Source of the DNA: Escherichia coli
GTDB lineage: Bacteria > Pseudomonadota > Gammaproteobacteria > Enterobacterales > Enterobacteriaceae
Length of the DNA stretch: 64,000 nt
Direction: 5' to 3' (one strand)
Assembly (NCBI RefSeq): GCF_016026235.1
Contig: NZ_CP065613.1
Shown here in pieces: positions 47,801-50,800 of the stretch. The position numbers are program-made. The first letter of the stretch is position 1; every line of letters begins with the position of its first letter.

Positions 47801-50800
47801 CGCCCGCTTGTGCTGCCAGCACACACACGCCGGTTGTTCCGCGGGTCATATTTTCAGCCTGAATGGCTGTCACTTCTTTTGGGGAAATAGCGACCCCTTC
47901 CTCCCAGACGCCGTGATCGGCACACATAACCAGTACCGCTTTTTTGCCCACATGCGGTATGCCATTCAACCCCGGCATTCCCGCCAGTTGTACGCCAAGC
48001 GCCTCCAGCCTTCCCAGGCTACCAACAGGTTTGAGTAACCCGTCAATATGCCGTTGTGCACGCGACATAGCGGCAGGATCGATGGCAGGGATCGTATTCA
48101 GTAAATTGGCAAGTGTTTGCATGTCACGTCTCTTTATAGCAGTGCCAGCAGGAAGACCAGTTCACCAAGCTCTATGGCTGCTCCCAGCGTATCGCCGGTT
48201 TGCCCGCCCAGCGTACGTTTGAGAAGCTGACCGAGGATGAAAATCGCCACCATCGTCACCACCATAGCAGCCACACCATGCATACCCGGCAATAATACGG
48301 CAGCAAAAATAGCGGCTAAGCCGAGTGTGACGCAGGTTTGTCGCCCATCAATTTTGCCAATGAACACATTGCCAAGCCCTTCTTCCCGGGCATAACGATG
48401 ACGATACATCAATAATGCGGCAGTCCCGCGGCTGACCGCACATGCTGCCGCCAGCGATGCAAGGATCGGTTCGCCACGCAGAGCCAACTCGCTTAACACC
48501 AAAATCTTTGCCAGTACAACAAAAATCAATGCCAGACCGCCGTGGGTACCTAAACGGCTATCACGCATGATTTCCAACATGCGATCGCGGCTACGTGCAG
48601 AAAATACGCCATCACAGGTATCAGCGAGGCCGTCCAGATGGAATCCCCCGGTCATCAGCACCAGCACAAGTACGCTAAACAGTGCCGCCAGTGGTGCGCC
48701 ACACCATGCCTGCAGCACCATGAAGACCAGCCCGCTAATCGCGCCAAGCAATAATCCAATCAAAGGAAAAGTAATAATACCGCGAGAATAATGCTCGAAA
48801 TCCAGTCCCTGGGACCAGCGACGCGGTACAGGCAGACGCGTAATAAATGAGAGCATCGCCCAAAATAATTTACTCATTTGATTTTTACTCCAATACCCGA
48901 AACCACCAGCCATACTTCATTTGCCGCAGCGGCCAACTGCTGATTTACCCGCCCGGCAATATCACGAAAATGTCGTGCCAGACGACTCTCCGGCACAATC
49001 CCCATTCCCACTTCGTTAGTCACTAATACAACCTTTGCGGGGCAACGTTGGCAGGCAGCAATCAACGACTGAATCTCAGCATTAATCGCCTGTTCCATCG
49101 CCTGATAATCCCATTCATCAGGGTCTTTATCGCCGCCATAATCAAACAACAGATTAGTCACCATTGTGGTAACGCATTCAAGCAACACAACCTCATTCGG
49201 GTTAATGTCTGCATGAATTAATTCATCAAGATGTTGCCAGCGCTCCACTGTGCGCCAGTGCTCCGGGCGGCCTTGCCGATGATGTTCTATCCGTGCAGCC
49301 ATCTCATCATCAAGGATTTGCGAGGTAGCGATATACAGAACCTGTGAAGAGTCCCCAATAAGCGCCTCTGCGTGGCGACTCTTCCCGCTCCGTGCGCCCC
49401 CCGTCACCAAAATCATCATACCGACTCCTGATTCAAATGTATGATGGTATTCATTGAACAGAACAATGGATCCCCCACCGTTGCTGACCGCAAAACATTT
49501 ACGCGATTAATACTGCGCGTAATATAATTAAAAATCCAGCATTCTCAATCCATTACGAAATAAGATGGCATTACGGAATAGCCAGACTTTCTCGTGTTAA
49601 CGTCCGACAAAATGCGTCATTGACAGCGGTTTCTGTGGATTGACACATTTCATTCAGATAATGAATTAATGCTACTGCCGGAACAACCAGCAAACGGGCA
49701 TTGTGTTCTGAAATCCAGGCTATTGATTCAACGTCAGCGACAGATCTGCGCTGTAAAAGAACTTGTAAAACAACGTAATAGAATTATCCGGAATGGTGGC
49801 GACTATGCACTAGAACACCACAATTTCGCTCTCTCGGTAAGGCACTGTCACAGCATTCAACAGAATGTGACTTGCCAGATTTATTAGCGCCACCAGATGT
49901 TTAACCGGGTAACCACGACCCAGTCGGGGATATATTCCATCTTCTCGCTGACATCATCAAGAATAAAAAGGTTTATCACACTCAGAGCAACGTTCTTCAG
50001 CAGGCGGGATAATTCTTCAACATTTAAAAGATGTGTTATTAAAGGCATACAAACTGGACGTATTGTATTTTCTTTTGGTGGTTGACCTAAGGTAGCAGTT
50101 TATCCTGATGCGCTGAGATTTCTGTAATATCTACGTCAACATTCTCCTCGAATAGAAAATGCAGCCCCGGCAAGTGATTCACATTTTTTAACAAAACGTT
50201 GTTAGCGTGCCATTTTCAGAAGCTCTCCAAGAAAGCGAATTCTTTTCTCAAATTCTGCATTCTCAGACACAGCTTTCTACTCCATGGCAATGGCCCAAAT
50301 ACGAAGTTGCTCAGGATCATTAGTGGTGCTGAGAAGTTAAATAACCATGCGGAGTACCACTCGTCATCACGTATTTATATATCATGAAGCTATTGTTGTG
50401 TTTTGTACATCAGTAGATGTATTCTGATATACTCCTTTTGCTAGACATAACCTTTCACCTGCTTGCAAAGCTTCTGTGTTCTGACATTGCCAAATTGTTG
50501 CAATTCTGTATCCAGCCTTCTTTCAGTCATAGCTTCGGGCCGCGATAAGACTCACTGATCTGACCCTGATTCCTCTTGCAGACTTTATAGACCAATTAAA
50601 ATGCAGTTTCTGCAGGTCAACGTCTGACCATCATTGTCATCACTCTGGCCATTAGAGTAACCTTCTGCATTCATCCTTTTGTAAAAAGTTTATAGACTGG
50701 CCCCCTGAATCTCCAGACAACCAATATCACTTAAATAAGTGATAGTCCTGATACAAGTTTTTAGAGTAGTCATTAGTGAACAGATAATTGTTAACTTAGA

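Follow-up and report, generated by a model that had tools for sequence, protein, structure and literature searches.

The 64-kb stretch of Escherichia coli DNA that was analyzed (the window) carries cobT, cobS, and cobU, all on the minus strand. Because cobU extends from 48874 to 49419 on that strand, the segment of interest, 49420 to 50690, begins directly after the cobU start codon. The segment was described in the original prediction as an AT-rich, gene-poor stretch of approximately 1.3 kb, and its composition agrees with that description. The GC content of the segment (0.411, or 41.1%) was lower than that of the whole window (0.486) or of cobTSU (0.523) and fell at the 4th percentile among 1271-bp windows of the 64 kb. 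Across all frames, the longest stretch without a stop was 87 codons, compared with 86 ± 19 codons in mononucleotide shuffles. The finding that 43% of the shuffles reached the observed length demonstrates that the segment contains no open reading frame (ORF) above chance expectation. No piece of the segment is able to encode a working protein.

A six-frame scan of the segment against Pfam yielded no matches, and the corresponding scan against NCBIfam yielded a weak match to an IS4 family and nothing else. A search of 48500 to 53500 with the Rfam covariance models at E ≤ 1 returned no match. The cobalamin riboswitch, for which Rfam matches were obtained in relatives that possess pdu genes (pdu+ strains), was absent. 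Neither an intact gene nor an annotated or Rfam small RNA (sRNA) was found in the segment; either would have counted against the original prediction. The shuffle analysis, together with the homologies to cbi, IS4, and IS66 genes that are described below, supports the earlier view that there is no convincing ORF and that the short frames are gene fragments.

Native remnants of the cbi operon adjacent to cobU

Comparison with strains that lack the island separated the segment into two parts. In the island-free strain H7 the gene order is cobU-cbiG′-pduV′-tmaR, and strain ET650 has a further deletion. Homology to the window ended at 49715 for H7 (93% identity) and at 49607 for ET650. The end of homology with island-free strains at 49715 indicates that the first approximately 300 bp of the segment is native and that the remainder is the edge of an island. 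The suggestion that the segment is decayed, horizontally acquired DNA was therefore correct for 49716 to 50693 only; 49420 to 49715 is the native upstream region of cobUST with remnants of the lost cbi genes for de novo B12 synthesis.

The remnant closest to cobU is the 3′ end of cbiP (cobyric acid synthase) at 49420 to 49455 on the minus strand. Its last 11 or so codons (approximately 35 bp) abut and overlap the cobU start codon, as seen when the sequence is aligned directly with the cbiP/cobU junction of Salmonella (ATACCATCAT..CATCAGGAG.CGGTATGATGATT). A blastn alignment across the Salmonella junction had 81% identity over 75 bp. Farther upstream, 49571 to 49714 (minus strand) contains the last 48 codons and the stop codon of cbiG′, a 145-codon remnant of the 5′ end of cbiG (cobalt-precorrin-5A hydrolase). 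RefSeq annotates the same interval as a pseudogene for a "cobalamin biosynthesis protein" without its N terminus. No ancestry was identified for the stretch of approximately 115 bp that separates the cbiP tail from the stop codon of cbiG′; the rest of the segment was assigned to named remnants.

The 48 cbiG′ codons of the window do not suffice to yield a CbiG match on their own in profile or sequence searches, and their identity follows from their colinearity with the longer alleles of strains MP1 (pdu+) and H7, from which the window allele differs by a 9-bp in-frame deletion. The full-length cbiG′ ORF of MP1 (145 amino acids) matched positions 1 to 126 of the CbiG profile NF004463 (E = 2.2e-20) and residues 1 to 119 of Salmonella CbiG (44% identity; E = 5e-24). 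Even this long allele is not a full-length CbiG, because its 145 codons and score of 73 bits compare with approximately 351 amino acids and an NCBIfam cutoff of 546 bits for the complete protein. A protein homology search with the 67-amino-acid remnant recovered nothing other than its own counterparts in E. coli and Shigella. The possibility that the "cobalamin biosynthesis protein" remnant derives from cbiP, the neighbor of cobU in Salmonella, was considered and rejected, since the match of the long allele is to CbiG and not to CbiP. When all of the Salmonella Cbi proteins were compared by tblastn with the MP1 interval between the leader and cobU, CbiG alone gave a significant match.

The native part can thus be aligned with the Salmonella enterica cbi-cob operon (cbiA...cbiG...cbiP-cobUST). 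Three parts of this operon are recognizable in E. coli: the cobUST genes, the final 35 bp or so of cbiP, and the N-terminal third of cbiG. In contrast to Salmonella, E. coli lacks cbiA to cbiF, the distal two-thirds of cbiG, and the region from cbiH through most of cbiP.

IS4 and IS66 fragments in the acquired part

Three IS fragments, nested and all on the minus strand, make up the acquired part of the segment, 49716 to 50693. The first is an internal fragment of an IS4-family (DDE) transposase gene at 49716 to 49914, which corresponds to yeeH and the start of yoeG in strain K-12. It matched positions 132 to 197 of the 332 positions of profile NF033592 (E = 1.7e-4) and, in tblastn searches, annotated IS4-family transposases on plasmids (73% amino acid identity; E = 2e-22). 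RefSeq annotates 49723 to 49911 as a pseudogene, a fragment of an "IS4 family transposase." The piece comprises approximately 64 internal codons with an internal stop, and it joins other sequence at both ends, leaving no complete ORF or terminal inverted repeats.

The second fragment derives from an IS66-family element and makes up most of K-12 yoeG. Codons 1 to 151 of the transposase gene tnpC are recognizable in one frame at 49905 to 50348 (minus strand), with 47% amino acid identity to an intact plasmid IS66 TnpC (tblastn E = 6e-24), and the translation of this frame contains five in-frame stops. The 3′ end of tnpB, about its last 20 to 25 codons, and the tnpB-tnpC spacer lie at 50376 to 50463 (minus strand). 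Colinearity with L004 and L005 in blastn alignments reaches 50463, and TnpB residues 107 to 124 matched 50444 to 50391 in tblastn. Over the tnpB 3′ end and tnpC codons 1 to 151, which follow the same order as in the plasmid elements (tnpA-tnpB-tnpC), the fragment has 71% nucleotide identity to many IS66 copies on plasmids. Unlike those elements, the window copy has lost both ends, with tnpC cut at codon 151; it has no intact tnpB or tnpC, no tnpA, and no terminal repeats.

The original prediction placed a short minus-strand ORF at 49903 to 50070. The peptide is real, but the coordinates were off by approximately 20 bp; the ORF lies at 49884 to 50048 (minus strand) and encodes 54 amino acids. 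It has an ATG start, and PGAP calls it in a subset of genomes, so that a hypothetical protein of 54 amino acids (WP_001128468.1) is annotated in some RefSeq genomes only. However, the ORF is a stop-free interval of the decayed IS66 tnpC, bounded by a stop on either side. It lies in the frame of the tnpC alignment (VSEKMEYIPDWVVVTRL versus VSEKMEYIPAQVVVNRY) and extends approximately 7 codons into the IS4 piece, which its C terminus enters in a nonnative frame. The ORF is therefore a chimeric by-product of a dead tnpC frame that runs into the IS4 piece. It belongs to no Pfam or NCBIfam family, its length is within chance expectation for the sequence of the segment, and the same stretch is curated as the pseudogene yoeG in K-12. 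Thus, the 54-codon ORF almost certainly does not encode a real small protein.

An IS1111-type noncoding end and the possibility of a guide RNA

The third fragment, at 50463 to 50693 on the minus strand, is the 3′ noncoding region (NCR) of an IS1111-type element (IS110 family, putatively ISEc11-like), with approximately 74% nucleotide identity to intact elements. Its homologues are the approximately 230 to 280 bp directly downstream of genes for 339-amino-acid IS110-family transposases in elements of about 1.44 kb. Examples include elements on an E. coli O104:H21 plasmid and on a Pantoea plasmid, the latter splitting umuDC. The homology ends just before the expected position of the transposase stop codon; the DEDD transposase gene is missing. 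At 50694 an IS2-like (IS3-family) end fragment begins, which lies just outside the segment (50694 to 50908, plus strand), truncates it, and has 83 to 89% identity to the end of K-12 IS2F and to a second IS2-like remnant. The right limit of approximately 50690 that had been proposed for the segment is thus a real breakpoint: the homology shared with K-12 and strain E2865 extends no farther than 50693/50694, where the IS2-like end starts.

In IS1111-type elements the 3′ NCR encodes a seekRNA, which guides the transposase and acts in trans (PMC11187229). It is therefore conceivable that the remnant on the minus strand still yields a seekRNA- or bridge-RNA-like sRNA that loads onto a related transposase in trans, and nearly the full length of the NCR is retained. 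A consensus RNA fold was derived from an alignment of nine intact NCR copies from plasmids and viral contigs. The consensus contains 60 pairs, of which 13 have compensatory changes, indicating that the NCR of live elements has a secondary structure. Of these 60 pairs, only 41 are retained in the window copy, compared with 56 to 60 in the intact copies. The 19 broken pairs are spread across all helices, whereas the intact copies break 0 to 4. This loss of pairing makes a live guide RNA unlikely. Single-sequence folds of 50455 to 50700 on both strands were no more stable than shuffles, with z = 0.48 for the fold of the remnant itself, and a consensus scan found no promoter-like site on the minus strand within the remnant. 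Furthermore, the cognate transposase gene is deleted, and the sole intact IS110-family transposase nearby (51662 to 52798) shares just 26% identity with the cognate type. The empty Rfam scan is uninformative on this question, because the intact ISEc11-like NCR is likewise not represented by any Rfam model. Therefore, compared with the ISEc11 class of elements (PMC11187229), the window retains a homologue of the approximately 230 bp that extends from the transposase stop codon to the right end of the intact elements, but without the transposase gene and with 19 of the 60 conserved pairs broken, and continued production of a guide RNA from it is extremely unlikely.

The segment as the edge of a genomic island

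The cobU-yoeG region of K-12 MG1655 is the same DNA as the segment, with 99.7 to 100% identity over 49301 to 50694. K-12 yeeH (b4639) corresponds to 49723 to 49809 and yoeG (b4640) to 49816 to 50348; both are pseudogenes. The only break in the alignment is IS5H, which K-12 carries at the CTAG that is vacant in the window (49810 to 49813); the alignment breaks there with a 4-bp overlap on either side. The expectation that K-12 has an IS5 and the edge of CP4-44 at the equivalent point was therefore accurate. The annotated start of the K-12 cryptic prophage CP4-44 is approximately 40 bp from the breakpoint at 49715/49716. The island edge recognized here is colinear with that annotated edge and is absent from island-free strains. 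The similarity does not continue to the right of 50694, where K-12 has yoeH, yoeA, and IS2F and the window has the IS2-like end, a fragment of an IS66 element, an intact element of the IS110 family, and sugar-kinase cargo. At the right edge of the island, K-12 resumes inside pduV′ (yoeF), which indicates that 280 bp of H7-type sequence is missing.

Among 5426 complete E. coli genomes, 5403 contained at least part of the segment and 2857 contained it at full length, mostly with at least 99% identity. Strain CFT073, for which a cobU-associated island is on record (PMC3155842), holds the segment at 99.4% identity. In other strains, IS1 or IS5 is inserted within it; such later insertions in various strains are consistent with the segment being neutral. 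Considered together, these comparisons indicate that the segment is very probably a noncoding mosaic at the left junction of a cobU-associated genomic island, represented by CP4-44 in K-12 and by the cobU island in CFT073.

The junction at 49715/49716 lies within the IS4 gene, away from any IS end, which suggests that it was made by deletion rather than transposition. It is common to approximately 4500 records in the 95 to 99% identity band and is therefore old and inherited. A metagenome contig (L008) in which codon 25 of cbiG′ is joined to 45 bp of the IS4 piece was considered as an intermediate form. It is probably an assembly chimera, because its junction was absent in one piece from every complete genome and the coverage of the contig was 1.66×.

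Potential control of cobUST expression

A candidate sigma-70-like promoter (TTGAGA, 16-nt spacer, TATATT; 10 of 12 matches to consensus) is located at 49521 to 49548 on the minus strand, between the cbiG′ stop codon and cobU. The consensus scan as a whole found 3 sites, no more than the 3.8 expected from shuffled sequence. The site at 49548 to 49521 has an identical sequence in MP1. A literature search found no usable data on the cobUST promoter. From its sequence and position, we infer that this site is likely to serve as the cobUST promoter in strains without the riboswitch.

The cob locus of pdu+ E. coli, typified by MP1 and present in approximately 640 genomes, is arranged pduF-pocR-cobalamin riboswitch-cbiG′-cobUST. 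The window resembles MP1 over the 150 bp upstream of cobU, which includes the promoter-like site, and over the cbiG′ tail, with approximately 92 to 93% identity. However, MP1 has the full 145-codon cbiG′ ORF, the riboswitch, and pocR, whereas in the window IS debris and the island take the place of everything upstream of approximately codon 98 of cbiG′. The loss of pocR and the riboswitch from window-type strains means that their control of cobUST must differ from that in pdu+ strains, which keep pocR, the riboswitch, and cbiG′ upstream of cobU. One possible consequence is that the AT-rich mosaic as a whole regulates cobUST, for example, through H-NS nucleation or through read-in transcription that takes the place of the lost control by the B12 riboswitch. 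The AT richness of the segment and the position of every gene fragment on the same strand as cobU would be compatible with such a role. However, H7, ET650, and the strains with IS1 or IS5 insertions keep cobUST with only 190 to 300 bp of native upstream DNA, which indicates that the IS-derived part is dispensable. Regulation by the mosaic as a whole is thus improbable. The functional content of the segment is likely limited to the putative cobUST promoter and leader within the native part.

A model for the formation of the segment

These comparisons are consistent with a history in which the ancestor would have had, between tmaR and ldtA, a pdu-pocR-cbi-cob block like that of Salmonella. Deletions that removed cbiA to cbiF and the region from the middle of cbiG to near the end of cbiP may have produced the arrangement riboswitch-cbiG′-cbiP′-cobUST found in pdu+ strains, and a further deletion up to pduV′ could have produced the H7 type. 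In the lineage of the window, arrival of the island and IS-mediated rearrangements would have replaced everything to the right of approximately codon 98 of cbiG′. Native DNA would then have been joined at 49715/49716 to the nested, truncated IS4, IS66, and IS1111-type pieces, a series that the IS2-like end cuts at 50693/50694. We infer that the IS debris has since been neutral and vertically inherited; in other strains it serves as a landing pad for more IS elements (IS1 and IS5).

Implications

The segment represents no new kind of sequence, and pseudogene annotations in K-12 and in RefSeq already cover most of it. As a textbook case of an island junction at which the genome has decayed, it matters little. 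It would matter more if either the orphan IS1111-type end were transcribed as a guide-like RNA or the IS mosaic had taken over the control of cobUST after the loss of the riboswitch, because debris that is fixed in approximately 84% of E. coli genomes would then hold a regulatory role. That one or the other is the case is very unlikely.

The analysis does improve the annotation of the locus. The pseudogene for a "cobalamin biosynthesis protein" can be named as a 5′ remnant of cbiG, with a small cbiP tail located beside cobU. Most of K-12 yoeG is a dead IS66 tnpC, the previously unannotated 230 bp is an IS1111-type noncoding end, and the 54-amino-acid "hypothetical protein" of some genomes is spurious. 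The cobU/yoeG interval has been taken as intergenic in work with K-12 and is the integration site of one group (PMC11677980; bioRxiv 10.64898/2026.06.05.730297). Thus, the exact breakpoint between core genome and island at 49715/49716 is relevant to groups that use cobU-yoeG as a neutral site for integration.

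Insertion sequences and cargo to the right of the cobU-adjacent mosaic

An intact IS110-family element of 1517 bp (window 51359-52875) lies to the right of the AT-rich mosaic of cbi and IS remnants beside cobU. Comparison of the two sequences indicates that this element is a recent insertion, because it is absent from E. coli PEC408, which is otherwise 99 to 100% identical to the window. Its 378-amino-acid transposase, encoded on the minus strand at 51662..52798, has only 26% identity to the ISEc11-like type, a remnant of which is found at 50463-50693. In ISEc11-like IS1111-type elements (L011 3470-3753, L012 3465-3746, and L013 to L020), the fold of the 3' noncoding region is strongly conserved and contains 13 covarying pairs, and Rfam has no family for this region.

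Further IS debris directly adjoins the mosaic on its right (window 50694-51304). It includes an IS2-like (IS3-family) end fragment at 50694-50908, with 83 to 89% identity to the K-12 copies, and, on the plus strand, another piece of an IS66-family tnpC gene (50945-51304), the second in this region, that corresponds to C-terminal residues 378 to 503, with 30% identity. The island cargo follows at 52989-57034 and, with names taken from the PEC408 annotation, includes a DeoR-HTH/PfkB-type kinase of 404 amino acids, a phosphotriesterase-related protein, a glutamine amidotransferase, and a DMT transporter whose PEC408 counterpart is a pseudogene.

The cobU island in other records

The annotated right end of the K-12 cryptic prophage CP4-44 is the exact point at which K-12 homology to the island-free strain H7 resumes. 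K-12 yoeF (L021 2576-2932) is a chimeric open reading frame whose C-terminal half is the PduV C terminus. In the plasmid collection, NZ_CP079635.1, a 1.04-Mb Klebsiella pneumoniae "plasmid," carries the E. coli cobU-island segment at 99.7 to 100% identity, which suggests that the record is mislabeled or a chimera and does not represent a genuine Klebsiella plasmid.

A cobalamin riboswitch upstream of cobUST

In metagenome contig L008 (1.66x coverage), the 5' remnant of cbiG is joined to IS4 sequence at positions 1782-1900: codon 25 of the remnant is followed directly by 45 bp of the IS4 piece (window 49760-49716) and then by the remnant's tail. None of the complete E. coli genomes contains this junction as one piece. 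A chimeric assembly is the probable explanation, with a rare recombinant as the alternative.

The same contig has a full cobalamin riboswitch (114 bits), an element also present in the pdu-positive E. coli strain MP1 (L010 4892-5722). pocR, the full riboswitch, and the cbiG remnant, which is here 145 uninterrupted codons, are retained directly 5' of cobU in approximately 640 of 5,426 E. coli genomes, and therefore cobUST is positioned behind a B12 riboswitch in these strains; in strains of the window or K-12 type, it is not.
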